Shown in pieces: positions 487 through 32,693 of a stretch of DNA of 64,000 bases. Each line of letters opens with the position of its first letter. Positions within the stretch are counted from its first letter, which is position 1. Made by a program: the position numbers and the translations under genes. Location of the stretch: assembly GCF_988243305.1 (NCBI RefSeq), contig NZ_OZ547136.1. One strand, written 5' to 3'. The notes below the pieces were generated by a model, which worked only from the letters and a program-made list of their open reading frames with translations, was not told the DNA's origin and searched no databases.

Positions 487-2913
487 ATGTCCAAAAATGA
501 ACAAATGGTGGGCATCAGCCGCAGAACACTCGTTAAATCTACCGCGATAGGTTCTCTGGCGCTGGCTGCAGGCGGTTTTTCTTTACCGTTCACCCTACGC
601 AGTGCAGCGGCAGCGGTACAACAGGCCAGCGAAAAAGTGGTCTGGGGTGCCTGTTCCGTCAACTGTGGTAGCCGCTGTGCACTTCGTCTGCATGTTAAAG
701 ATAATGAAGTGACCTGGGTGGAAACTGACAACACCGGCAGCGACGAGTATGGCAATCATCAAGTACGCGCCTGTTTGCGCGGTCGGTCCATCCGTCGACG
801 TATTAATCATCCCGATCGCTTGAATTACCCAATGAAACGCGTGGGCAAACGCGGCGAAGGCAAATTCGAACGGATTAGCTGGGATGAAGCCCTGGATACT
901 ATCGCCAGTAGCCTGAAAAAAACCGTCGAACAATATGGCAATGAGGCTGTATATATTCAGTACTCTTCAGGGATCGTTGGCGGCAATATGACCCGCTCTT
1001 CGCCATCCGCCTCGGCGGTCAAACGCCTGATGAACTGCTACGGCGGTTCACTCAACCAGTATGGCTCCTACAGCACCGCGCAAATTTCCTGTGCCATGCC
1101 CTACACCTACGGCAGTAATGATGGCAACAGCACCACGGATATTGAAAACAGCAAGCTGGTCGTGATGTTTGGTAACAACCCGGCAGAAACCCGCATGAGC
1201 GGCGGTGGCATCACTTATCTTCTTGAAAAAGCGCGCGAGAAATCGAACGCAAAAATGATTGTTATCGATCCGCGATATACCGATACAGCTGCTGGTCGTG
1301 AAGACGAATGGCTACCTATTCGCCCGGGCACCGATGCCGCGCTGGTTGCGGGTATTGCCTGGGTATTGATTAACGAAAATCTCGTTGATCAACCTTTTCT
1401 CGATAAATACTGCGTCGGCTATGACGAAAAAACCTTACCCGCAGATGCACCAAAAAATGGTCACTATAAAGCCTATATTCTTGGTGAAGGTGACGATAAA
1501 ACAGCGAAAACGCCGCAGTGGGCTTCGCAAATTACCGGTATCCCGGTGGACCGTATCATCAAACTGGCGCGTGAAATTGGCACAGCAAAACCCGCTTATA
1601 TCTGCCAGGGCTGGGGACCGCAACGCCAGGCAAACGGCGAGCTGACTGCACGTGCTATTGCGATGTTGCCTATTCTGACGGGCAATGTCGGCATCAGCGG
1701 CGGGAATAGTGGCGCGCGTGAATCGACCTATACCATTACCATAGAACGCCTACCGGTGCTGGATAATCCGGTCAAAACGTCAATCTCCTGCTTCAGCTGG
1801 ACAGATGCTATCGATCATGGCCCGCAAATGACGGCAATCCGCGACGGTGTCCGGGGCAAAGATAAACTGGATGTGCCCATTAAGTTCATCTGGAACTATG
1901 CGGGAAATACCCTCGTTAATCAGCATTCTGACATCAACAAAACGCATGAAATTCTGCAGGACGAATCGAAATGCGAAATGATTGTGGTCATCGAAAACTT
2001 TATGACCTCATCGGCAAAATATGCCGACATTCTGCTGCCAGACCTGATGACCGTTGAGCAGGAAGATATTATTCCTAACGACTACGCCGGTAACATGGGA
2101 TATCTCATTTTCCTTCAGCCAGTCACCAGCGAAAAATTCGAACGCAAACCGATTTACTGGATCCTGAGTGAAGTCGCGAAACGTCTTGGACCTGAAGTCT
2201 ATCAAAAGTTCACTGAAGGTCGCACTCAGGAACAATGGTTACAACATCTGTACGCCAAAATGCTTGCCAAAGATCCGGCGTTACCGTCTTACGACGAACT
2301 GAAAAAAATGGGTATCTATAAGCGTAAAGATCCCAATGGTCATTTTGTCGCCTACAAAGCATTTCGTGACGACCCCGAGGCAAATCCACTTAAAACGCCT
2401 TCCGGTAAGATTGAAATTTACTCCAGCAAGCTGGCGGAAATTGCCCGTACCTGGGAACTGGAAAAAGATGAAGTGATAAGCCCACTGCCGGTTTATGCCT
2501 CAACCTTTGAAGGCTGGGACTCCCCTGAACGTAGCACCTTCCCACTGCAACTGTTTGGTTTCCATTACAAATCCCGTACTCACTCGACCTACGGCAACAT
2601 TGATGTCCTGAAGGCAGCCTGCCGTCAGGAGGTGTGGATCAACCCTATAGATGCACAGAAACGTGGGATTGCCAACGGCGATATGGTGCGGGTGTTTAAC
2701 CATCGTGGCGAAGTTCGGCTACCAGCCAAAGTGACACCACGCATTCTCCCTGGGGTTAGCGCTATGGGCCAGGGAGCCTGGCACGAGGCCAATATGTCTG
2801 GCGATAAAATCGACCATGGCGGCTGTGTGAATACGCTAACCACTCTGCGCCCTTCACCACTGGCGAAGGGAAACCCGCAGCACACGAATCTGGTCGAGAT
2901 CGAAAAAATATAA
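487..2913 (+). CDS. ynfE: Molybdopterin oxidoreductase catalytic subunit, DmsA paralog (selenate reductase) with twin-arginine signal
   Basis: 808-aa ORF; N-terminal SRRTLVKS Tat motif; Cys-rich CSVNCGSRC Fe-S motif; synteny with ynfFGH. Confidence 0.9.
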   Translation: MSKNEQMVGISRRTLVKSTAIGSLALAAGGFSLPFTLRSAAAAVQQASEKVVWGACSVNCGSRCALRLHVKDNEVTWVETDNTGSDEYGNHQVRACLRGRSIRRRINHPDRLNYPMKRVGKRGEGKFERISWDEALDTIASSLKKTVEQYGNEAVYIQYSSGIVGGNMTRSSPSASAVKRLMNCYGGSLNQYGSYSTAQISCAMPYTYGSNDGNSTTDIENSKLVVMFGNNPAETRMSGGGITYLLEKAREKSNAKMIVIDPRYTDTAAGREDEWLPIRPGTDAALVAGIAWVLINENLVDQPFLDKYCVGYDEKTLPADAPKNGHYKAYILGEGDDKTAKTPQWASQITGIPVDRIIKLAREIGTAKPAYICQGWGPQRQANGELTARAIAMLPILTGNVGISGGNSGARESTYTITIERLPVLDNPVKTSISCFSWTDAIDHGPQMTAIRDGVRGKDKLDVPIKFIWNYAGNTLVNQHSDINKTHEILQDESKCEMIVVIENFMTSSAKYADILLPDLMTVEQEDIIPNDYAGNMGYLIFLQPVTSEKFERKPIYWILSEVAKRLGPEVYQKFTEGRTQEQWLQHLYAKMLAKDPALPSYDELKKMGIYKRKDPNGHFVAYKAFRDDPEANPLKTPSGKIEIYSSKLAEIARTWELEKDEVISPLPVYASTFEGWDSPERSTFPLQLFGFHYKSRTHSTYGNIDVLKAACRQEVWINPIDAQKRGIANGDMVRVFNHRGEVRLPAKVTPRILPGVSAMGQGAWHEANMSGDKIDHGGCVNTLTTLRPSPLAKGNPQHTNLVEIEKI

Positions 2914-6923: not shown

Positions 6924-7538
6924 ATGACCCATTTTTCACAGCAAGATAATTTTTCTGTCGCGGCGCGCGTGTTGGGCGCGCTGTTTTATTACGCTCCAGA
7001 GAGTGCGGAAGCCGCACCTCTGGTTGCGGTACTCACCCGTGACGGCTGGGAAACTCAGTGGCCTCTACCCGAAGCGTCATTAGCGCCGCTGGTGACGGCT
7101 TTTCAGGCACAGAGTGAAGAGACTCGCGCCCAGGCCTGGCAGCGTTTGTTTGTCGGCCCGTGGGCACTGCCGTCACCGCCGTGGGGGTCGGTCTGGCTGG
7201 ATCGCGAATCTGTGCTGTTTGGCGATTCAACATTGGCACTTCGTCAGTGGATGCGCGAGAAAGGCATTCAGTTTGAAATGAAGCAAAACGAACCGGAAGA
7301 TCATTTTGGTTCACTGCTGTTGATGGCTGCGTGGTTGGCGGAGAATGGTCGCCAGACAGAATGCGAAGAATTGCTGGCATGGCACCTTTTTCCGTGGTCA
7401 ATACGTTTTCTTGACGTTTTTATCGAAAAAGCAGAACACCCTTTCTACCGTGCACTGGGTGAACTGGCTCGCTTAACGCTGGCGCAATGGCAATCACAAC
7501 TGTTAATTCCTGTCGCGGTTAAACCACTCTTTCGATAG
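6924..7538 (+). CDS. dmsD: Tat proofreading chaperone for DMSO reductase-type enzymes
   Basis: Product begins MTHFSQQDN (internal Met of track ORF 6915..7538); position after ynfH. Confidence 0.85.
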   Translation: MTHFSQQDNFSVAARVLGALFYYAPESAEAAPLVAVLTRDGWETQWPLPEASLAPLVTAFQAQSEETRAQAWQRLFVGPWALPSPPWGSVWLDRESVLFGDSTLALRQWMREKGIQFEMKQNEPEDHFGSLLLMAAWLAENGRQTECEELLAWHLFPWSIRFLDVFIEKAEHPFYRALGELARLTLAQWQSQLLIPVAVKPLFR

Positions 7539-7731
7539 GATCACCGTAATATTGCCGGATGGTGGCGATTACGCGCAATTCGGCAATAATAGGTTACAGT
7601 GTCACGTTTTTTATCTCTTAAAGCACGCACTGCTTTTGCGTCTGGCCTCTTTTGCCGCAAAATAGTCGCCCGTGTTTCATTGCCCATTTCTGCTCATGCA
7701 TCATCTACACATCTATCCGGATCTGCGCACT

Positions 7732-8988
7732 ATGTTCCGCCGTCTGCTTATCGCAACAGTCGTCGGTATTCTCGCGGCCTTTGCCGTTGCCGGGTTTCGT
7801 CATACGATGCTGCTACTGGAGTGGTTGTTCCTCAATAATGACTCGGGCAGTCTGGTCAATGCAGCGACAAATCTTTCCCCGTGGCGACGGCTGCTAACTC
7901 CGGCGCTCGGCGGACTGGCGGCGGGTTTGTTGCTGATGGGCTGGCAGAAATTTACCCAGCAACGCCCTCATGCGCCGACCGATTACATGGAAGCGTTGCA
8001 AACCGATGGGCAGTTTGATTACGCAGCAAGCCTGGTTAAATCGCTTGCCTCTCTGCTGGTAGTAACCAGCGGCAGTGCAATTGGTCGCGAAGGTGCGATG
8101 ATTCTTTTAGCTGCCCTTGCCGCCTCCTGTTTTGCCCAACGTTTTACGCCACGCCAGGAGTGGAAATTATGGATCGCCTGTGGAGCTGCGGCGGGAATGG
8201 CTGCGGCCTATCGCGCCCCGCTTGCTGGCAGTTTATTTATAGCCGAAGTGCTGTTTGGCACTATGATGTTGGCCTCTCTCGGCCCGGTGATTATTTCCGC
8301 CGTCGTGGCGTTGCTGGTTAGCAATCTGATTAATCATAGCGACGCGTTACTCTACAGCGTACAACTCTCAGTGACGATTCAGGCTCGTGACTATGCGCTG
8401 ATTATCAGTACAGGTGTGCTGGCAGGTCTGGGCGGACCACTGTTGTTAACGTTAATGAACGCCTGTCATCGTGGATTTGTAAGTCTCAAACTTGCGCCGC
8501 CCTGGCAACTGGCACTGGGCGGGTTGATCGTGGGTCTGCTTTCCCTGTTCACACCTGCAGTGTGGGGCAACGGCTATAGCACCGTACAATCCTTTTTAAC
8601 CGCCCCGCCACTGTTAATGATCATTGCCGGGATCTTCCTCTGTAAACTGTTTGCCGTGCTGGCGAGTAGTGGTTCTGGCGCGCCCGGTGGTGTCTTTACA
8701 CCGACGCTATTTATCGGTCTTGCCATTGGCATGTTGTATGGTCGTAGCCTGGGATTATGGTTCCCTGATGGCGAAGAAATTACGCTTTTACTCGGATTGA
8801 CCGGGATGGCGACACTGTTGGCGGCAACCACGCACGCGCCGATTATGTCGACGTTGATGATATGTGAAATGACCGGGGAGTATCAGCTACTCCCCGGTTT
8901 ATTGATTGCCTGCGTAATTGCGTCGGTAATTTCGCGGACGTTACACCGTGACTCTATCTACCGCCAGCACACTGCGAAGCATAGCTAA
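7732..8988 (+). CDS. clcB: ClC-family voltage-gated chloride channel / H+-Cl- antiporter
   Basis: Polytopic membrane protein; start taken at [12 protein letters not shown] (internal Met of track ORF 7672..8988) to give 418 aa. Confidence 0.8.
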
Positions 8989-9636
8989 GCGGATGTATTG
9001 CCCCAGTTCACGCTGTTCGGCGCGCGGCAGATAAGGCAGTTCACCAATGAGCGGTGCCGGAAGTTTTTTACCGAGCACATCAATGATTTCCGCATAATGC
9101 GCCAGTCCTGGATTGATTCGGTTAGCCACCCAGCCAATGAGCGGTAGCCCGTCGTTGGCGATCGCCTGAGCTGTTAGCAGTGCATGGTTAATGCAACCTT
9201 CCTGAATACCGACAACCATCAACACCGGCAGTTGTTCCTGCACCACCCATTCAGAGAGCGGACGCAAATCATTCATCAGACTGCGCCAGCCGCCAGTCCC
9301 TTCTACCACCACATGATCGACTTTATCGGTCAGGTTTGCCAGGCCGTTTGAAATGAGGGTGTAATTGATTGGGCAACTGTGCGCCACGCTACTTTCTTCT
9401 TCGCTTAACGCGATAGGATTAACTGCTTCATAAGGCAGTTCGATGGTTGAAACACTCTGCAACACCAGGGCATCTTTATTACGCAGCCCTTCGGGTGTCT
9501 CTTTGCTCCCCTTCGCTACGGGTTTATATCCCGCAACCGTTTTTCCCTGGGAGGCTAACGCTTGTAGCAATGCGCGGGAAACCACCGTTTTCCCTACAGA
9601 AGTGTCTGTACCGGTAATAAAGAAACGCTTCAGCAT
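8941..9636 (-). CDS. ynfK: Dethiobiotin synthetase paralog (BioD-like ATP-dependent ligase)
   Basis: P-loop GTDTSVGKT near N-terminus; start at MLKRFFITG; 3' end overlaps clcB convergently. Confidence 0.85.
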
Positions 9637-23906: not shown

Positions 23907-24111
23907 GCGGCAAACACTCAACCGTTTTTCATAAGGAAATCAGCAATCGCACCGATCGTTTTCCCGCCTGGTAATGAATATTGGCGAGCACATTAACAGG
24001 CGGGAAAGTGGCCCCAGCGTCCTGGCACCACGGGCGAGAATAATCATGATTCAGTTCGGGTAAAATATGCCGATCCGCTCAGTGAACAACGTGGAACAAC
24101 CACGAACAAAT

Positions 24112-24149
24112 AATTTACAAAAAATAACAAAAAGCCGGATTGCTCCGGC
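24112..24149 (-). terminator. Rho-independent terminator downstream of the small gene 24170..24394
   Basis: Minus strand GCCGGAGCAATCCGGC hairpin followed by TTTTTGTTATTTTTT. Confidence 0.6.
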
Positions 24150-24169
24150 TGTATGTGCTGTATGGGTGC

Positions 24170-24394
24170 TCAGTCTCTGATCCCTTTCAGAAATTCTATC
24201 AATGCATCTGTCTGTTCAGGATTTACTGCCAGCATTTCACCGGATAGCGCGCAACGAACAAAACCATGATGATCCTTTTCAATCAGTGCGCCCGTCTCCA
24301 GGAATGCGCGGTAATCATTGATGCTCATCGTCTCCATGTTGTCAGCATGGTATTTATCACGCTGTTTTAATATCTCATCAAATTTCATCGGCAT
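24170..24394 (-). CDS. Small hypothetical protein (74 aa) in a terminator-bounded cassette
   Basis: ATG at 24394 preceded by AGAGGAAAAAACA RBS; terminators on both sides. Confidence 0.55.
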   Translation of the reverse strand: MPMKFDEILKQRDKYHADNMETMSINDYRAFLETGALIEKDHHGFVRCALSGEMLAVNPEQTDALIEFLKGIRD

Positions 24395-24488
24395 TGTTTT
24401 TTCCTCTGTTGTGTCTGTTTGTTTCAGATAGTAACTATGCCTGACCGTGACGAAAACCCGGTAATGCGCCATACCGTTTCAACTGGTG

Positions 24489-24512
24489 CAAAAAAAGCCG
24501 GATTTCTCCGGC
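24489..24512 (-). terminator. Rho-independent terminator ending the replication-region operon
   Basis: Minus strand GCCGGAGAAATCCGGC hairpin followed by TTTTTTT. Confidence 0.6.
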
Positions 24513-24563
24513 TGTGTGATTAGCTGTCCTGGTAATTGCGCCATATTTCATCACCAGCACCAT

Positions 24564-24833
24564 CTATCCCCATTTCGGCATAAGTGCGATCGACTGCCTT
24601 TTCAGGTCTCCGTAATTATCCGGTGGCTCCGGTGGCCTCTGTGCCTTCCTGGAACATTCCAGCCGTCGCATCGTGATGTGATGCCGTTCCTTGTCTGTCT
24701 CCACCAGCAGCATGACTTCACCCCATCGCGCCGACGCCCTCCGGTAAAATCCTTTAGCCTCGAGTTCCTCCGCTATGCGGTCATGTACCATCCTCACCCC
24801 CTCAGAACGGAATACCGTCACCGTAAGGGTCAT
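24564..24833 (-). CDS. Hypothetical protein downstream of ssb; start uncertain (24833 or 24791)
   Basis: ORF in track 24564..24911; candidate ATG starts at 24833 (GGGAGG upstream) and 24791 (GTGAGG upstream). Confidence 0.4.
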   Translation of the reverse strand: MTLTVTVFRSEGVRMVHDRIAEELEAKGFYRRASARWGEVMLLVETDKERHHITMRRLECSRKAQRPPEPPDNYGDLKRQSIALMPKWG

Positions 24834-25212
24834 CGCCTCCCGCTGGTGGCTGATTACCCTGTGTGCCTGTGGTTTTGCGTCTGTTCCCGCCAGGACGTGC
24901 CGCACGGGCACTGATTACGCTGTCTGCAATAACCTGCCAGCCCTGCCGCGTTTCTCCGTTCTGTCCGGTCCACTGGCTTACCTGCATCGTGCCGGATACG
25001 CTGGCAACATCGCCTTTTTGATGTTTAGCCAGGAAGTCGGCCTGTTTGCCAAATGCGATGACCGATAACCATAACGTCGCCTGTCCGTCCTGTGCCTGGC
25101 TGCATGGCAAAGATACCGCCATACGCGCCAGCGTCATCGGTGTGCCCTTGCTGGTCTGTTTTACCTGCGGGTCGTCCACCAGCCGCCCGTAAGCGGCTAT
25201 CTGTGCCGTCAT
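24802..25212 (-). CDS. ssb: Single-stranded DNA-binding protein
   Basis: 136-aa ORF with Gly/Gln-rich linker and C-terminal acidic tail ending DDPYGDGIPF, the hallmark SSB C-terminus. Confidence 0.8.
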   Translation of the reverse strand: MTAQIAAYGRLVDDPQVKQTSKGTPMTLARMAVSLPCSQAQDGQATLWLSVIAFGKQADFLAKHQKGDVASVSGTMQVSQWTGQNGETRQGWQVIADSVISARAARPGGNRRKTTGTQGNQPPAGGDDPYGDGIPF

Positions 25213-25490
25213 AATTCCACCTCTCCGGTTTTAACGTTGATGGTTGTTACCTGTTCCGCTTCGGCAATCTCCCGTTCTGTCAGCGTGGCAAAGTTTGCCG
25301 CCGCCGTGGTCATGAATGCGCTTATCAGGTCGGGATGTTCCTTCGCGTATCCTTCCCGCGTGTGGCGGTCTATCGTTCTGATTGCCACCTTTAAAGCGTG
25401 CTCAGTCATGTCTAACGCTTTATATTTTGGCTCTGTTCTGTCTCTGCGTTTTTGGGTCATTTCTCGCAACCTCTCACTTTTTCGCCTCAC
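25209..25490 (-). CDS. Hypothetical basic protein upstream of ssb
   Basis: 93-aa ORF overlapping ssb start by 4 nt; 5' end overlaps the iteron array so true start may be internal. Confidence 0.4.
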   Translation of the reverse strand: MRRKSERLREMTQKRRDRTEPKYKALDMTEHALKVAIRTIDRHTREGYAKEHPDLISAFMTTAAANFATLTEREIAEAEQVTTINVKTGEVEL

Positions 25491-25662
25491 TTTTTCAAGC
25501 GTCTCACTTCGTCGCAGTTGGGATTTTCGGTTTTTCTATGTGTGTGTTTCATAAGTATTTTTTTACCCCTCACTTTTGAGGATGTATACAGGTCGAAAAG
25601 TGAGGGAGAGCGGGCTAATTTTGGCCCTCTTTCTATCCCCCTCGCTTTTGCTCCTCACTTTT
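25470..25662. repeat. Iteron array (CTCACTTTT, about 7 copies including one inverted); putative replication origin
   Basis: Copies at 25473, 25486, 25502 (imperfect), 25569, 25596 (inverted), 25640 (imperfect), 25654; immediately 3' of the replication ATPase gene. Confidence 0.6.
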
Positions 25663-27061
25663 ATAGCGGCGCTACATCATCCCCATCGATACGAATAACC
25701 CCATCTTTTTCCAGCTTGTACAGCCAGCGCCGGAAGTTTTTCATTTCATACCCCAGTTTTTTCATGTCATCACGTAACAGCGGGATCGTGCACTTGTCGC
25801 CGTTCTGTGTGCGTGAACGGATGCACCCCCATAGCGCGGTATGGTTTTCCGTCTTGTTCCCTGCCTCCTCGATGCGCTCCAGTTCAACAGGAGGGCGCGG
25901 ATCATCCACCACTACCAGCGACGTGATTAATTCACCGTCAGCGTCGGTAAAAAGCTCCACCACGCGTAAGTCATATGCGGCTTCTTTGAGTTCCTCCGCG
26001 TCCTTCATTTTGGTGCATGAGATAACCAGCGCTTCGCTTCCTGCGTCCTCCCTGCGTATCCGGTATTCAGCATCCAGCGAAGCACGAAATGCACTGGAAC
26101 CGCGCGCGCCTTTCGTCTCATCCTTGCCGGAATGGTGAACCACCAGCACCGTGGCCCCTGTGCGTCGTTTCAGTTCGTCACAACCACGGATAAACGCCCC
26201 CATATCACGGGAATCATTTTCATCATTCCCACCAAAGCAACGCGCCAGCGTATCCAGAATAATCATGCGTACAGGTTTACCCGTTTCCCGCTCCACCTGA
26301 CGGGCAGCGATAACCATTTCATCAACATCAAGCGGGGCAGCCGGAAAGATGGGGCGGTTTACCAGATACAGATTTTTCACCTGCTCATCGTGCACAACCT
26401 CCCAGGCTTTTACACGACGCGGAACACCTATACCGCCTTCACCAACCACATAGAGAACCGCACCATGTGCAACCCTGCGGCCTCCCCACTGGCGACCAGT
26501 GGCAACATGGCACGCCCACGATCCGGCAAGGAATGATTTATAGGACCCGCTAGCCCCGTATATGCTGCATAGCGATACCGCCGGAATAATCCCCTTAACC
26601 ACGTAATCCAGTTGCGTGTCGTATCCGGTAGATCCAACGCTCATCGGTAGCGTGGTTTTTCGCTGGTGGTTTTTTTCTTCCACCGGCTCTTTCCCGCGCA
26701 CCCGTTCCAGGTATTCGCGCCAGTTCTCCCGCATATGGCTGTGCATCCCTTCGGGGTAATAATTCGCATCAGTTACACCCGCCGCCGCCAGCTTGTGCGC
26801 AATGGCATTAATATTTGATGGCCTGATGTGGCCTGCCTTGTACAGCCGGACACAATAGCGCCCCTCGTCGATGATTCTCAGGTCTGCCAGTTCATCCAGT
26901 TGATCATCAGCCAGCACAACGGGAGGCACATTATCGCCAGCCAGTCGCCCGTCCTGTTCCTGCCACTGTTTCGCATGTGCCCAGGCATCACTACCCGCAA
27001 AAATAATGACTTCGGTCATCTTGTCGTAAGGCTGTTTTTTTAAGTTCGGTGCGCTTTTCAT
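25661..27061 (-). CDS. Replication initiator with RecA-fold ATPase domain (satellite Pri-Rep-like)
   Basis: 466-aa ORF with Walker A-like YGASGSYKS and downstream ILDTL Walker B-like segment. Confidence 0.65.
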   Translation of the reverse strand: MKSAPNLKKQPYDKMTEVIIFAGSDAWAHAKQWQEQDGRLAGDNVPPVVLADDQLDELADLRIIDEGRYCVRLYKAGHIRPSNINAIAHKLAAAGVTDANYYPEGMHSHMRENWREYLERVRGKEPVEEKNHQRKTTLPMSVGSTGYDTQLDYVVKGIIPAVSLCSIYGASGSYKSFLAGSWACHVATGRQWGGRRVAHGAVLYVVGEGGIGVPRRVKAWEVVHDEQVKNLYLVNRPIFPAAPLDVDEMVIAARQVERETGKPVRMIILDTLARCFGGNDENDSRDMGAFIRGCDELKRRTGATVLVVHHSGKDETKGARGSSAFRASLDAEYRIRREDAGSEALVISCTKMKDAEELKEAAYDLRVVELFTDADGELITSLVVVDDPRPPVELERIEEAGNKTENHTALWGCIRSRTQNGDKCTIPLLRDDMKKLGYEMKNFRRWLYKLEKDGVIRIDGDDVAPL

Positions 27062-27357
27062 TTCTTGCCCCTGAATCCGTTAATCATGGTTTTCAGCTTC
27101 TGGATGTTTGCCCGTGCCCTGGCGTTGCTGGTGGGCACGTTATGCGGCGCGGTCTGTACCAGAGAAAAATCACGCCGGAACTGATAAACAGGCATCACGC
27201 AATCATATTCGTAACCTTCACGGCGGTAGGTTACGCGCCGTTCTTCCACGCCCTTAATCATTACCGTGCCGCCGTACTGGTCGCGGTAAATATCACCGCG
27301 CGTAAATTTAGGGTGAGTGTTGCCACTGGCAGTTAAGCCAGAATATTTAAGTTTCAT
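27058..27357 (-). CDS. Hypothetical protein, translationally coupled to the replication gene
   Basis: 99-aa ORF whose stop overlaps the replication ATPase start by 4 nt. Confidence 0.45.
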   Translation of the reverse strand: MKLKYSGLTASGNTHPKFTRGDIYRDQYGGTVMIKGVEERRVTYRREGYEYDCVMPVYQFRRDFSLVQTAPHNVPTSNARARANIQKLKTMINGFRGKK

Positions 27358-27362
27358 TATTT

Positions 27363-27596
27363 TTATTCTCCGGTGTGCTGTTCTTTATATCTGTCGTGCA
27401 ATAGATCTATTTCTTGCAGTTCCATTATTACAGGCTCAAGAAGCGTTATTAATGCCGTGGCAATTCTTGATTTTTGTTTGTCGCGTTCATTGTCGCCAAG
27501 TGTTTCAAGCCATATGCGCAATATTTCCAGCATGTTTTCACTGTGAGAAAGTGCAAGAAATACGCGGTCTATTGTTTCGTGGTAAATATCACGCAT
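27363..27596 (-). CDS. Hypothetical small protein
   Basis: 77-aa ORF tightly packed between neighbouring ORFs on the same strand. Confidence 0.4.
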   Translation of the reverse strand: MRDIYHETIDRVFLALSHSENMLEILRIWLETLGDNERDKQKSRIATALITLLEPVIMELQEIDLLHDRYKEQHTGE

Positions 27597-27597
27597 A

Positions 27598-28034
27598 TTA
27601 ATCCCCGTCCGTCGTTTTTCTTAAAATAACCTCTGTCACGAAATCAGCATAATCGGCGGCGATATTCAGTACATCAAGCCCCGTTGATTTATATTCTCTC
27701 GTGGAAAGTAAGAAAAAAGCCGCTCTAATAAGTTCTGGCATTGACGAAAGCGCATCAGCCGCATCATCAGGAACGCCGGAAAATTCCTGTTTCAGGGAAT
27801 TAAAACGATCATCACGCATAACCCCCCCCCATTTTCACAATCAGCAACAAGAATATTTTTAGCGTCATTCAGCGACCGCGTTGCGATGTATCGGATACAT
27901 TCCAGGGCGAACTGTGTCCGGTCTTTCTGTTCTTCTCCCTGCGCAAGCTCTGCAGTGCATTCAATATCGATAAGCGCGTGCATCAGCGTAGTGAGCGCGG
28001 CGGCTGCTGCGTCCGGTGTGGTTTTATTGCACAT
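27598..28034 (-). pseudogene. Gene split into two frames by a G9 homopolymer tract (27822-27830); frameshifted or phase-variable
   Basis: Upstream part starts at ATG 28034 with AGGAGG RBS and ends 27792; downstream part 27598..27819 begins 3 nt after the tract in the +1 frame. Confidence 0.55.
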
Positions 28035-28314
28035 GGCACACCTCCTGACGAATACGGGCGGCGAATACAGCAACACAACCGGACGGGCAACGGCTACGCG
28101 CTTCGCGTTCCGTCCAGGCGGTTACGTGGATGATTTGAGATTCTCCGGCACTTAGTGCCAGAAAACGCCACACAAAGGCCGTTTGTGTGTGTATAAGGCG
28201 TGGTATATGATTTACGGCAACCATAACGGCTCCTAGTTTACGTTGTTGGTTAGACGCCCCGTATGTGTTCCCAGCACTGCGGGGCGTTGATTTTTGTGTA
28301 ATGGCAAGTACAAT

Positions 28315-28358
28315 GGTAATTACCATGTAGGTATAGTAATGAAGGGTAATTACCATGT
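28315..28358. promoter_or_regulatory. Two copies of 14-bp repeat GGTAATTACCATGT, each containing the perfect palindrome GGTAATTACC; putative operator
   Basis: Copies at 28315-28328 and 28345-28358, 30 bp apart; second copy overlaps the ATG of the small plus-strand gene; region lies between divergent gene sets. Confidence 0.55.
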
Positions 28359-28528
28359 CAACACCATTAGAAAAACGTTCGCCTCCATACCAAATGCGAT
28401 TACCGGAAGACTTCAGAGCGCAGCTAGAAGAAGCAGCTAAGGCCGATGGCGACACATCTTTAGCCACTTGGATTAAACGCGTTCTCCGCAAAGAATTACA
28501 GCAACGCGGCATAGAGCCAAAAGGTTGA
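28355..28528 (+). CDS. Small putative DNA-binding protein (Arc/MetJ-type ribbon-helix-helix-like), 57 aa
   Basis: ATG 28355 to TGA 28526-28528: MSTPLEKRSPPYQMRLPEDFRAQLEEAAKADGDTSLATWIKRVLRKELQQRGIEPKG; one of only two plus-strand genes in the island. Confidence 0.5.
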   Translation: MSTPLEKRSPPYQMRLPEDFRAQLEEAAKADGDTSLATWIKRVLRKELQQRGIEPKG

Positions 28529-28549
28529 ATTTCAGAAGGAGATAAAATA

Positions 28550-28702
28550 ATGAACTGGCTGTTACATACCCTCCCAGGTCGCATTCTCATTGCACTAATT
28601 ATTTTATGGATTTTGTACCAATTCGGTTTTTTCGATTCGCTTTGGAAGCCTGACTGTTCCGTTAACCCTGGCGATGTACTGAAAGGCTGTAAAAATGGCT
28701 GA
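28550..28702 (+). CDS. Small hydrophobic peptide (50 aa), predicted membrane-associated
   Basis: AGGAG RBS 8 nt upstream of ATG 28550; MNWLLHTLPGRILIALIILWILYQFGFF... single hydrophobic segment. Confidence 0.45.
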   Translation: MNWLLHTLPGRILIALIILWILYQFGFFDSLWKPDCSVNPGDVLKGCKNG

Positions 28703-29057
28703 TCAGGGTTACTCCCTGTAATGCCTTTAACTGGCCCTCTTAAAGAGGGTTGGTTATCTTCGCAGCTCTCTACGTTTTTCGTCGGAACCTCTGAACCTAA
28801 GCAGTGTTGATGTTCAGGAGAACCCGAATACTGTTCGTGTTCGTTGCTCGCCAATTCTCGCGTTTCGCGATAATCAAAATGATTCAATGGGTTGAGATGT
28901 CCGTACGTTAAACGTACGCGGTTAATTTGTACATGCGAATTTCGTCGGCTCAAATTCTGCGCAACCCTGCTTGAGTTATGCAAATAGCACGCGGCTAACT
29001 CACAAGGATTTGAGCGCCCCCAAACGGGGGAGCGCAAAATTTTAGGCATAAGACGCA

Positions 29058-29771
29058 TCAGCGAATCTCCAACACTGACGATGAAGTGATCAGGCTGGCG
29101 AACGCATCCATACGGCGGGCAACCTCACGCACCGCATCGCCTGGACTCATGTCATTACGCACCGCCTCATTAAAGGCCGCCTGTTCGATTTTCTGCATCA
29201 CTACCAACAGCCCCAATTGCTGTTCGTCTGCGGTACCGCGTTCACCATCAGACAAACCAGCCACGCGGTTTTCAGCGCGGGCCAGATTGATGTAATGGTG
29301 CCGTTGTGCGCCCAGAGCTTTTAATCTGTCGCGGCTTTCGTGATAGCCAGGCAGGTACTCACGGCGGATAGGTTCTGCGGCGCGGCGCTTAGTGAATGCC
29401 TTCGTAACATCCAGTTTGAACTGGTTAATACGCTCAGGATCACGCCCTCGGGTGATACGCAGCAGATAGTCGAGCTGCGGCTCATTCAGCAGATAACTAA
29501 TCTCAGGACGCCCACGCTTTCGGCCGGATTTTCCCGATTTCAAATCGGTTAATTCCTTGAGTGACTGACGAGGCAGTGATCCCAGCTCGCGCAATCTGCT
29601 CTGGTGCGATTTAATCGTCGCGCTTAAGCTTTCATGTTGTATTCCGGCTCGCTCTGAAATAACGCGGGAATCGATACGCGGCTCCGATTTGTGATTAATT
29701 AAAATATCGCTCTGGCTGGCTTCAGGGCGAACGAATCCCCGCCCACGTTCTGGCGTATATTCAATCTTCAT
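29058..29771 (-). CDS. Hypothetical protein, possible phage-type regulatory protein
   Basis: 237-aa ORF between AlpA and the divergent control region; basic central segment GRKRGRP; no confident family assignment. Confidence 0.4.
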   Translation of the reverse strand: MKIEYTPERGRGFVRPEASQSDILINHKSEPRIDSRVISERAGIQHESLSATIKSHQSRLRELGSLPRQSLKELTDLKSGKSGRKRGRPEISYLLNEPQLDYLLRITRGRDPERINQFKLDVTKAFTKRRAAEPIRREYLPGYHESRDRLKALGAQRHHYINLARAENRVAGLSDGERGTADEQQLGLLVVMQKIEQAAFNEAVRNDMSPGDAVREVARRMDAFASLITSSSVLEIR

Positions 29772-29828
29772 GGTTATAGCTCTGTGTTCAGATGATTGAT
29801 GTGTGGCGGCTGCGTGCCGCCAGCGTGA

Positions 29829-30017
29829 TTAATGAACTGCCTTGCAGCTATCCTTCCAGGCCAGAACCTCGGATAAAGACCAGCCAACGGAACGACCGCC
29901 AAGTTTACGACGTGATGGGAATTGTCCGGCCTTTTCCAGGCGGTAGCGACACGTACGGCTAAGGCCGGTTAGTTTTTCGCATTCTTTTTCACGTATAAAC
30001 CGATCAGTGCTTAACAC
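29829..30017 (-). CDS. alpA: AlpA-family phage transcriptional regulator / excisionase-like HTH protein
   Basis: 62-aa ORF with AlpA-like signature ...LTGLSRTCRYRLEKAGQFPSRRKLGGRSVGW...; adjacent to integrase. Confidence 0.7.
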   Translation of the reverse strand: MLSTDRFIREKECEKLTGLSRTCRYRLEKAGQFPSRRKLGGRSVGWSLSEVLAWKDSCKAVH

Positions 30018-30381
30018 TATTGCCCCCTTTCGTTTCTTAAAGAGTCATCAGGTGTCTTATTGTGTCGTATTGTTCCCGCTAGAGTGATAAATGGCAAATA
30101 CTGAGGATGTATGATTTACAGAAAATGAAACAGTAAGAATAAAATCTTTTAAATTCATGTTAATACAAAGGCATAAAATATTGTTTCATGCCTTTTTTCT
30201 CGCTCTTTAAAGAGTGATTCGCTAGTGTATAAAAAACCAGTAACGCATTAAAAATCAGCTACTTATAAATCCGTACGCTTTTTCGCCTCTTGTTCGTAGT
30301 TGTTCCACATTGTTGCTCATTGTTGCACGTTGTATCTGTTCGCATATACAGTATGCGCATACTGAAAAAACACGAAAAAAA

Positions 30382-31611
30382 TTATTTTCTTCTGGCTACT
30401 GGTAGCGTGGTTACGTTTTCATGTGTTCCCGCCAGTATCCCTAACCGCTCCGTCCACATATCCAGCGCATTGCGTTTAGCATCCAGATAACGGGAATGAT
30501 TATAAACTCGCTGCATTCCTGGCATCTGGTGGCCTGTAAGCTGCTCCACGACATGCGGATCAACGCCTAAATCGTTCAGCATGGTTGTAAAGGTGCGCCG
30601 GATGTCATGCAGTGACCAGTGAGGATGATTAAGCCTCCTGTGCGCTAATCTTCCATACTGCGATACGCTGGCCTCCTGTTTCACTTCCCCCAGCAATAAG
30701 CCCGTGTGCCTGTTCTGCTCCACCAGCTGCGTGACGAACGGCAGGATCGCTTCCGGTATGGGCCGGAATATTGCGACCTTCGTTTTGCTGTGCTCCTTCG
30801 GAACGGTCCATAGCATTTCCGTAAAATCCCACTCCCCGATCTCCGATAACCTCAGTTCTACCGTTCTGGCTCCGAAGACAATCAGGAGGCGGATTAACGC
30901 GACGTAGTAAGGGGAGAATATTTTTTTGTCCAGTGCCTGCAATAATTCGCCAAGTTCTTTGTTACTTAAGACACGTTCGCTTATATCCGGTTTTTTCCCA
31001 ACGTCCGCCACGTTCAGATCGTCCAGAACGTTGCTGATTGCATAGCGCCGCCTACGGCAGAACTTAAGCGCCTGTTTGCACGCCTGTAGCACGAATCCGG
31101 CAGTAACAGGCGTTCGCTTTGCCACCTGGTCAAAACAGGCCAGCCAGTGCCGTAGCTCGCATTTATCCAGCGGCATAGCACCAATCTGCTGTATTACGTG
31201 ATTATTAAGTCGCCTTTTCAGGGCGATATAATCCACGCGGTTTTCCTTTACGTAATACTCAAGCCAGTAGGTGAGCGCATCGCCAACCGTTACGGGCTTT
31301 AACGCTTCCTGTACGGTGTAATTCATCTCATGACGTGGATTTTTCCCCTCAGCCAGCCATGTGCGACACTGTGCGGCTTTTTCCCTGGCTGCTTTCAGGC
31401 TCAGATCAGGATAACTTCCCAGCTTAATGCGTTCGGGTCGTGTCTCCCTTCCCGTTCCGGCCCTGTATGTGAAATACCAGGTCAATTTCCCTGATGTTAA
31501 ATATTTCACGCTCAGGTTTCCGCCATCACTATAAAACGTGTTTTTCTCCGCTGGCTTACCATGAAGTTTCCTTAGCAAGGTATCGCTCAGTTTGTTCATT
31601 GCTCTGCTCAC
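30382..31611 (-). CDS. int: Tyrosine site-specific integrase (P4-type)
   Basis: 409-aa ORF; C-terminal catalytic region with HDIRRTF (H-x-x-R) and a downstream tyrosine; located at the island right end. Confidence 0.85.
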   Translation of the reverse strand: MSRAMNKLSDTLLRKLHGKPAEKNTFYSDGGNLSVKYLTSGKLTWYFTYRAGTGRETRPERIKLGSYPDLSLKAAREKAAQCRTWLAEGKNPRHEMNYTVQEALKPVTVGDALTYWLEYYVKENRVDYIALKRRLNNHVIQQIGAMPLDKCELRHWLACFDQVAKRTPVTAGFVLQACKQALKFCRRRRYAISNVLDDLNVADVGKKPDISERVLSNKELGELLQALDKKIFSPYYVALIRLLIVFGARTVELRLSEIGEWDFTEMLWTVPKEHSKTKVAIFRPIPEAILPFVTQLVEQNRHTGLLLGEVKQEASVSQYGRLAHRRLNHPHWSLHDIRRTFTTMLNDLGVDPHVVEQLTGHQMPGMQRVYNHSRYLDAKRNALDMWTERLGILAGTHENVTTLPVARRK

Positions 31612-31786
31612 GTTTTACCCCCTCTTTACGAAAAAGTGACTACACCAGTGACTACACCGATCGTTGCACAAAGGGCTACAACGTGAAACAAGCTGGAACA
31701 AGGAAAATCACAAATCTGTTGATAATCAAAAACATAATGCACAGCCTGAAACATTATGAAACAGCAAAAAACACTAAATGATAAAA

Positions 31787-31795
31787 TGCTGTTAT
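31787..31795. repeat. Right copy of 9-bp direct repeat TGCTGTTAT at the island/host junction
   Basis: Identical to 16458-16466; the tqsA reading frame resumes here ([11 protein letters not shown]...). Confidence 0.65.
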
Positions 31796-32693
31796 TCTTA
31801 ACCCGCTGGTGCAACACATGGTCCGCTGGCGAGTGCCGCGTGTACTGGCGGTGTCGATTTTGATGACCATCATCGTGATGGCGATGGTGTTGCTGTTAGC
31901 TTATCTGGGTTCCGCACTCAACGAGTTGACGCGGACGTTACCGCAATATCGCAACTCTATTATGACGCCGCTGCAAGCGCTTGAACCGTTGTTGCAACGC
32001 GTAGGGATTGACGTCTCAGTTGACCAACTGGCGCATTACATTGATCCGAACGCGGCGATGACGTTGCTCACCAACTTATTGACGCAGTTATCTAATGCCA
32101 TGTCATCAATCTTTTTATTGCTGCTGACGGTGCTGTTTATGCTGCTCGAAGTGCCACAATTGCCCGGAAAATTTCAGCAAATGATGGCGCGTCCGGTTGA
32201 AGGGATGGCGGCGATTCAGCGTGCGATTGACAGTGTTTCTCATTATCTGGTGCTGAAAACAGCCATCAGCATCATCACCGGCCTGGTCGCCTGGGCGATG
32301 CTCGCCGCACTCGATGTTCGCTTCGCTTTTGTCTGGGGATTGCTGGCCTTTGCGCTTAATTACATCCCGAATATTGGTTCAGTTCTCGCGGCAATCCCCC
32401 CTATCGCTCAGGTATTGGTGTTTAATGGCTTCTACGAAGCGTTGCTGGTGCTGGCGGGATATCTGCTGATTAATCTGGTCTTCGGCAATATTCTGGAGCC
32501 GCGCATCATGGGGCGTGGGCTGGGGCTTTCCACATTGGTGGTATTTCTGTCGTTGATTTTTTGGGGATGGTTGTTAGGACCGGTGGGTATGCTGCTTTCC
32601 GTGCCGTTGACAATTATTGTCAAAATTGCGCTTGAACAAACAGCGGGTGGTCAAAGCATCGCCGTTCTGTTAAGCGATCTCAATAAAGAGTGA
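31796..32693 (+). pseudogene. tqsA: 3' portion of tqsA (AI-2 exporter) separated from its 5' end by the island
   Basis: In-frame continuation [24 protein letters not shown]...; track ORF starts at GTG 31809. Confidence 0.8.

Follow-up and report, generated by a model that had tools for sequence, protein, structure and literature searches.

The window analyzed here, a stretch of 64,000 nt from contig NZ_OZ547136.1 of NCBI RefSeq assembly GCF_988243305.1, carries a capsid-forming phage-inducible chromosomal island (cf-PICI) of Escherichia coli inserted in tqsA, beside pntAB, a flank that is seen in a near-identical island (L001). We focused on the gene that follows alpA in this island and found that it encodes a two-domain protein of the Rha family, which belongs to the Bro network and which we tentatively read as an accessory DNA-binding regulator. 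The cf-PICI assignment rests on the genes present, namely int, alpA, replication genes and the island's own capsid, protease, portal and terminase genes; in Pfam terms, the set comprises integrase, AlpA, AAA_25, SSB, PerC, Phage_capsid (HK97-type), Peptidase_S78 protease, Phage_portal, HNH, Terminase_4 and TerL. On the minus strand the order is int, alpA, the Rha gene, a 344-codon open frame, small open reading frames (ORFs), DUF4222 and the RepA helicase, the last being the AAA_25 protein (25661–27061, minus strand), which is a RepA-family helicase according to the RefSeq annotation of its L001 homologue. The regulatory and replication part (24000–32000) is 97.6% identical to an annotated relative. 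The loci used for comparison comprised the Rha-less islands L001, L003 and L016 (O157) and the Rha-bearing loci L002 and L004–L006 from E. coli and L007–L009 from Providencia. A preliminary description of this DNA, made from its letters alone, had proposed a 237-aa ORF at 29058–29771, lying with int and alpA on the integrase side of the switch region, and the coordinates bear out both the ORF and its location:

29058–29771, minus strand: Rha-family (Bro-network) protein, an ATG-started ORF of 237 codons (237 aa)
29391–29675, minus strand: Phage_pRha winged-helix domain, residues 33–127 (Pfam alignment range and model)
29502–29525, minus strand: AT-hook-like wing GRKRGRPE, residues 83–90 (read from the sequence)
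29082–29450, minus strand: C-terminal helical-bundle domain, DdrC-like, residues 108–230
29829–30017, minus strand: alpA, directly upstream of the Rha gene and co-oriented with it (PF05930, E 5.4e-17)
30382–31611, minus strand: tyrosine integrase gene at the island end (Pfam Arm-DNA-bind_3 and Phage_integrase)

The ORF is a real coding gene, because it has relatives, a low ratio of nonsynonymous to synonymous divergence (dN/dS) and a confident AlphaFold model. A word-indexed protein search returned 220 relatives at E ≤ 1e-3, the closest at 98% identity, and 251 relatives were found among 50%-identity cluster representatives. Across the protein, dN/dS ranged from 0.13 to 0.43, with values of 0.13–0.16 for the C-terminal half against two homologues. 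AlphaFold2 modelled two domains with confidence (mean predicted local distance difference test score, pLDDT, 82.8), leaving disordered only residues 1–19, 74–79 and 231–237; the first of these segments is disordered and variable throughout the family. The "mixed helical character" seen earlier thus corresponds to a winged helix followed by a helical bundle in the model.

We then considered to which family the protein belongs. Pfam PF09669 (Phage_pRha) matched residues 33–127 (E 1.7e-5, 25.8 bits, 87 of 91 profile positions), a match that is sub-threshold but real, so that the preliminary statement of "no motif" does not hold. phrog_2657, annotated as a transcriptional regulator, matched residues 22–171 (E 1.8e-7), with a weaker match to a Rha-like PHROG family. 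PF09669 was also matched by all 60 sequences of a deep alignment of relatives (A2; E ≤ 0.01, best 1e-18), and precomputed matches to it exist for most relatives in the large search. Many of them are named "Rha family transcriptional regulator", and some sources use "Anti-repressor protein"; fold matches in BFVD include phage "Regulatory protein", KilA-N, Bro-N and antirepressor entries. Distant Rha-family relatives align over the whole two-domain length at 24–45% identity. Because all 60 aligned relatives match PF09669, sequence comparison makes it secure, via transitive homology, that the window protein is a diverged member of the Rha superfamily. No NCBIfam family was found for the protein, sequence searches of the PDB, run with the protein itself and with two profiles, returned no meaningful match, and the one further Pfam match at E ≤ 1 was a negligible HTH_Tnp_1. 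No housekeeping or enzyme family matched, and the earlier suggestion of a regulatory or antirepressor-like protein fits, given the Rha-family membership and the satellite position after alpA.

Phage_pRha is one of ten Bro-network domains found in the Bro zone of Gram-negative PICIs (PMC10111431), and many annotated antirepressors likewise begin with a domain of this network (PMC10111431, PMC9043618). The window protein shares with Rha proteins of temperate phages (about 220–260 aa) the N-terminal winged-helix domain and the two-domain length, and differs from them in the AT-hook-like basic loop of its wing and in its satellite position after alpA. The same modular logic is seen in AriS-like proteins and P22-type antirepressors, in which an AntA, Bro-N or pRha N-terminus is joined to ANT/KilAC (PMC9043618): an exchangeable Bro-network N-domain precedes a conserved C-terminal effector domain. 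The difference is that the C-domain of the window protein is not ANT/KilAC and has no Pfam family.

In the AlphaFold model, the N-terminal domain consists of strands at residues 24–34, helices at 35–62, wing strands at 68–70 and 91–95 and a helix at 97–106, giving a winged-helix topology (strand/helix/helix/wing) over residues 24–106 with pLDDT mostly above 90 outside the wing. The "basic central patch" of the preliminary description, GRKRGRPEISYLL, was located at residues 83–95, and the basic wing falls in a loop of low confidence (pLDDT 53–62). About three wing variants occur in the family on one type of C-domain, and the AT-hook-like loop is confined to one of them; the window variant has SGKSGRKRGRPE in place of the wing β-hairpin, and the divergence of this copy sits in the wing. 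Its core, KRGRP, resembles an AT-hook, whose core is R-G-R-P, and because of this likeness the basic patch is probably a minor-groove DNA contact.

Residues of about 108–230 form the most conserved part of the protein, with invariant RREYLPxYHESR, NLARAENR, GER and QKIEQAAF motifs that hold across Escherichia, Salmonella, Klebsiella, Edwardsiella, Hafnia, Yersinia, Xenorhabdus, Proteus, Providencia and Pantoea. Searched alone, the C-terminal half matched no Pfam or PHROG family. The structure-based search that had been suggested earlier yielded a sole strong match, to the linker and four-helix bundle of Deinococcus radiodurans DdrC (PDB 7QVB). DdrC is composed of a winged helix-turn-helix (wHTH), a helical linker and a domain-swapped four-helix-bundle dimer; it binds DNA on both faces, its bundle and linker serve dimerization and help DNA binding, and it compacts and circularizes DNA (PMC9303277). 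The two proteins share the architecture of wHTH, linker and four-helix bundle at a sequence identity of only 11–13%, and the profiles A2 and A3 did not retrieve DdrC from PDB sequences at E ≤ 10. Furthermore, DdrC is a chromosomal, damage-induced nucleoid protein outside mobile elements, whereas the window protein is satellite-borne. We take the shared architecture as support for a dimeric DNA-binding protein and for no specific function. DdrC had been described as lacking any known structural homologue (PMC9303277); through this structural link the "orphan" Deinococcus protein gains look-alikes in a large family carried by phages.

Comparison with related islands placed the gene in a variable slot at 28525–29722 of the window. 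The 62-aa AlpA translation is identical to ORFs of L001 and L003 and corresponds to RefSeq WP_000953272.1, which is also present in L016; islands of O145, O55 and O157 strains carry this identical AlpA together with both operators of the switch region and no full Rha gene. These Rha-less islands keep the first 49 nt (16 codons) of the Rha gene, MKIEYTPERGRGFVRP, at the head of a long "Icd-like" frame. A survey of 5426 complete E. coli genomes found 65 with 80% or more of the Rha gene, none of them with the gene in a tqsA island, and no genome with the exact arrangement of the window. EcCIEDL933, described with int, alpA and rep and with no Rha-like gene, is helper-induced in an alpA-dependent manner, replicates and is packaged. 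Because islands that share the alpA and switch region but lack Rha are common, the Rha gene is accessory and not a master switch. The preliminary description had placed the gene where satellites keep their induction machinery: the position stands, but an indispensable role does not, since islands identical in alpA and switch region exist without the gene. The other ORFs that L001 and L003 have in this slot were considered as Rha-like candidates and rejected, as they translate to low-complexity sequence.

Within the family, mosaicism and swapping affect the N-terminal half. Against L004, synonymous divergence (dS) of the Rha gene was 0.13 for this half and 0.94 for the C-terminal one, and one relative fuses the Rha N-domain to Phage_ASH.

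In every satellite context that we opened, the Rha gene follows alpA, directly or after a few small ORFs. In E. coli, cf-PICIs at yhdJ and at two further sites have the order int-X-alpA-Rha; next come DUF4222, Ash, primase and capsid in some and an antisense ribbon-helix-helix (RHH) gene, Icd, primase and capsid in others, and Providencia islets read int-alpA-111 aa-Rha-[antisense DUF3950]-primase. On a short contig, a relative with 42% identity is co-oriented with AlpA and lies four small ORFs after it, and the Pseudomonas satellite phiAH14b has int-HflK/C-alpA-p04-Rha (PMC4936722). Rha-domain matches are also abundant in streptococcal satellite records. The full-length relatives that true phages carry are inserted in their late operons, on the opposite strand. 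Gram-negative PICIs are zoned into integration, "Bro", replication and late regions, of which the Bro zone is dynamic (Mageeney et al. 2023, PMC10111431). The window agrees with this scheme in that a gene with a Bro-network domain, read from the same strand as its neighbors, separates int and alpA from the replication genes and is subject to segment swapping. A Rha-type protein in the position after alpA has thus already been described, and the window protein is a further diverged member. No functional study of such proteins in satellites came out of a literature search that paired Rha with satellites, antirepressors, alpA or PICI, and the papers searched establish no biochemical function for any member of the Rha family.

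Downstream of the Rha gene lie a long open frame and the switch region, including the "control region" of the preliminary description:

28024–29058, minus strand: 344-codon open frame whose ATG overlaps the Rha stop codon (TGATG)
28287–28361, unstranded: divergent promoter-like pair ("control region"), TTGATT-16-TACAAT rightward and TTGACA-17-TACTAT leftward
28313–28326 (ATGGTAATTACCAT) and 28343–28356 (AGGGTAATTACCAT), unstranded: palindromic operators
28355–28528, plus strand: 57-aa Arc-like RHH protein (phrog_228 "Arc-like repressor", E 1.5e-6)

The control region is real, consisting of divergent promoter-like hexamers and two palindromic operators. These two sites are the only occurrences of the palindrome in the 64 kb (0.26 expected), and they overlap both divergent promoter-like sites and the start codon of the RHH gene. 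The pair is present in the Rha-less islands L003 and L016 and absent from the Rha-bearing L002 and L004–L006. We considered the palindrome, GGTAATTACC, as a target of the Rha protein and rejected it, as it travels with the RHH gene and not with Rha. In the unrelated Providencia loci L007–L009 the operator core GGTAATTACC occurs once, at 7923–7932, about 70 nt upstream of the Rha gene, which may be chance. The RHH protein also has a weak YlcI/YnfO match; its gene is antisense to the long frame and converges on the Rha gene. An ORF at the same position and strand in L002 is annotated "HicB family antitoxin", the protein is identical in the Rha-less L003, and L001 has a different RHH allele at the same place. 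From its sequence, it is a probable island repressor acting on the main operon.

A further candidate target, TCTTAAAGAG, was found in the 64 kb only at 28738–28747 and 30035–30044 (0.06 expected), one copy lying in the 3′ flank of the Rha gene and the other just upstream of the alpA start codon. It was likewise rejected, because the motif does not co-occur with the Rha gene: the copy near alpA is part of the backbone and is present in the Rha-less L001 and L003, whereas the copy in the 3′ flank comes with the cassette and is present in L002. A related motif, CTCTTTAAAGAG, was seen at 30203–30214.

We favor, at a probability of roughly 45%, the reading that the window protein is a two-domain DNA-binding Rha regulator, accessory in the Bro zone of a cf-PICI, that acts in trans, likely on helper DNA. 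The alpA and Rha genes are probably co-transcribed; they are separated by a gap of 57 nt, in which a terminator scan found none convincing. In the proposed mechanism, a helper phage would turn on alpA transcription, and the Rha protein would be made together with AlpA, would dimerize through its C-terminal DdrC-like bundle and would bind DNA through its winged helix and basic wing, acting in trans as a transcriptional or architectural regulator. Its target would more likely be the DNA of the helper or of a competing phage than the island's own switch, because the same backbone works without the gene, because no island motif co-occurs with the gene and because the DNA-binding half moves between unrelated island lineages. 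The outcome could be a tuning of helper gene expression or of helper range, such as PLE CapR and P4 delta/epsilon achieve by other means. As precedents, the Bro-network-linked CapR of the PICI-like element (PLE) represses the helper capsid promoter (PMC10111431), and P4 epsilon derepresses P2.

Several points weigh against this reading. The PF09669 match of 25.8 bits falls short of the Pfam gathering score of 29.9, the motif comparisons found no DNA motif co-occurring with the Rha gene, and the literature search found no DNA-binding, dimerization or regulatory experiment for the protein or a close relative. The assignment of the target to helper DNA is purely inferred. The wHTH of DdrC is negatively charged and its DNA binding is non-specific (PMC9303277), so that the fold match supports general DNA binding and not sequence-specific regulation. 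In addition, the copy in the window carries Asp in place of the near-invariant Gly207, Arg at 149 and a chimeric N-terminus, and could be impaired.

Among other explanations, it is doubtful that the protein is an antirepressor that binds and inactivates a repressor. The repressor would be either the CI-like one of a helper prophage, whose inactivation would induce the helper as P4 epsilon/Ash does by acting on P2 C, or the Arc-like RHH repressor of the island itself, whose gene lies 530 nt downstream. Rha domains head many annotated antirepressors, a name that some relatives bear, and the gene occupies the alpA-to-replication stretch where P4 has eta/cI and then epsilon; the window, L002 and Providencia each have a small antisense RHH or DUF3950 gene just past the end of the Rha gene, and, besides the relative that fuses the Rha N-domain to Phage_ASH, an Ash protein is encoded two genes downstream in L004–L006. 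However, ANT/KilAC, AntA/AntB, P22_AR and Phage_ASH are absent from the window protein (Pfam, E ≤ 1), and its fold matches a DNA-binding dimer. L004–L006 have the Rha gene without the antisense RHH gene, and islands with RHH and without Rha are common, so that the Rha protein is not an obligate partner of RHH. It is also unlikely, by analogy with classical Rha, that the protein is an interference factor harming helper or competing lambdoid phages to the benefit of the satellite or the host. The rha products of phi80 and P22 inhibit phage growth in hosts defective in integration host factor (IHF), as cited in PMC4936722, the gene is rare (65 of 5426 genomes, as above) and sits in a variable slot, and the phage relatives are moron-like in being opposite-strand inserts in late operons. 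Nonetheless, PADLOC models gave no match at E ≤ 0.01 for the Rha protein or three neighbors, and the Rha proteins of phi80 and P22 were not retrieved as relatives, so that their phenotype may not transfer; interference moreover overlaps with the regulator reading, as it could be an outcome of DNA binding.

That the protein serves as an architectural or replication-packaging helper, a DdrC-like DNA-compacting or end-binding protein that organizes island DNA, appears improbable. DdrC, the sole strong structural match, does compact and circularize DNA, and the Rha gene lies upstream of the replication zone, but Rha-less islands with the same backbone exist, EcCIEDL933 replicates and packages without such a gene, and the swapped, variable winged helix suggests target specificity and not general DNA binding. 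We regard as similarly improbable that the gene is a decaying passenger, a recombination remnant with an intact ORF whose function has been lost in this island. Its chimeric 16 N-terminal codons are common to Rha-less islands, Asp207 and Arg149 are unusual, and the exact arrangement has no counterpart in the complete E. coli genomes; set against this, the gene is open over its full length and still overlaps the next frame through TGATG, the C-domain has a dN/dS of 0.13 against a 97.8%-identical copy, and residues 1–19 are disordered and variable in the whole family.

If the accessory regulator reading is right in placing the target on helper DNA, it would help explain the helper range of cf-PICIs, which move between species; if the protein is an ordinary accessory regulator, the result is a useful annotation only. 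The genes after alpA are obvious candidates for how Gram-negative PICIs sense or manipulate helpers, alpA itself being known to be required, and the Rha gene is a clean example, in that its DNA-binding half varies while the second domain is almost invariant. Islands that carry the gene and islands that lack it occur naturally on the same backbone, which offers a ready comparison. The DdrC link and the open-frame architecture around the Rha gene are both worth following.

The 344-codon frame that begins at the Rha stop codon crosses the antisense RHH gene and the promoter region and runs into the Icd-like gene and replication operon, ending as an Icd-like domain (residues 295–338, about 28045–28176; NF033153 phage_ICD_like, E 1.1e-16). 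It contains 0 stops, compared with 19 and 23 in the other two frames. Equivalent open frames are found in L002 (336 codons, 7394–8404, minus strand), in the Rha-less L003 (313 codons, 1431–2372, minus strand), where the frame starts right after alpA, and in Providencia L007 (258 codons, 8686–9462, plus strand), with 0 stops each against 13–24 in other frames; none of 2000 dinucleotide shuffles of the window, L002, L003 or L007 frames was left open. The middle of these frames is not conserved at the protein level. The aligned lengths there are 1090 nt in the window and 1009 nt in L002, a difference of 81 nt that is a multiple of three. In RefSeq, the upstream part of the long frame appears as an "incomplete" Icd-like pseudogene (L003 1779–2372, L016 8456–9049), and the plus-strand RHH gene is unannotated in both islands; the pseudogene call is probably a mis-annotation of one intact long frame, and a seemingly systematic one. 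About 350 nt on the 3′ side of the Rha gene (28703–29057; L002 8001–8403) move with it between two cf-PICI lineages, and this segment contains no ORF besides the long frame and no Rfam match.

This organization resembles that of P4, in which an alpA homologue (orf88) is followed by regulatory ORFs and then by replication genes. In the P4 eta/kil leader, translation coupled to an alpA homologue prevents termination (PMC10111431), and the long frame of the window is likewise coupled to its upstream gene and ends in a small product that is toxic or division-inhibitor-like, as eta/kil does. Unlike the window protein, P4 epsilon belongs to the Ash family and not to the Rha family. Some Bro zones carry the immunity RNAs C4/isrK (PMC10111431); the window differs from these in having an antisense Arc-like protein repressor gene, and a search for C4, isrK and CI-type immunity RNAs, which would be expected beside an Icd-like gene (Rfam, E ≤ 1, 24000–32000), returned a spurious snoRNA only. 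Homology of the long frame to P4 was rejected, as BLASTP against the P4 ORF annotated cI gave no similarity; with no sequence similarity to P4, the parallel is organizational only.

A more speculative and rather doubtful extension of the regulator reading makes the protein a helper-directed effector, in which the swappable winged-helix half would select the helper or competitor phage DNA to be bound and the invariant DdrC-like half would have a conserved task, for instance to dimerize, bridge DNA or contact a host factor. Its gene would have entered, in frame, a translated leader ORF, through which alpA-driven transcription would pass the antisense Arc-like gene and reach the Icd/replication operon. 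Were this true, the island would have a satellite switch that combines P4-eta-like translated read-through with a protein repressor.

Four further features were recorded around these genes:

28550–28702, plus strand: ORF for a 50-aa hydrophobic peptide, with an AAGGAG ribosome-binding site, beginning MNWLLHTLPGRILIALIILWILYQFGFF
29013–29035, unstranded: GC hairpin 23 nt past the Rha stop codon, inside the start of the long frame (read from the sequence)
29804–29822, minus strand: GC-rich hairpin with a 7-bp stem, a 5-nt loop and no U tract (read from the sequence)
30069–30163, minus strand: two promoter-like sites upstream of alpA (consensus scan)

The promoter-like sites above alpA are suggestive at most, their count being no higher than the shuffle expectation, and the terminator scan did not score the hairpin at 29013–29035 as a terminator. 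The hairpin at 29804–29822, which falls in the spacer between alpA and Rha, belongs to the backbone common to Rha-less islands and could be a processing or attenuation signal. The ORF of the 50-aa peptide follows the RHH gene and, like it, converges on the Rha gene; the peptide matched no family in the profile libraries searched and could be a small membrane toxin or exclusion peptide. In L001 and L003, a 62-aa basic ORF takes its place.

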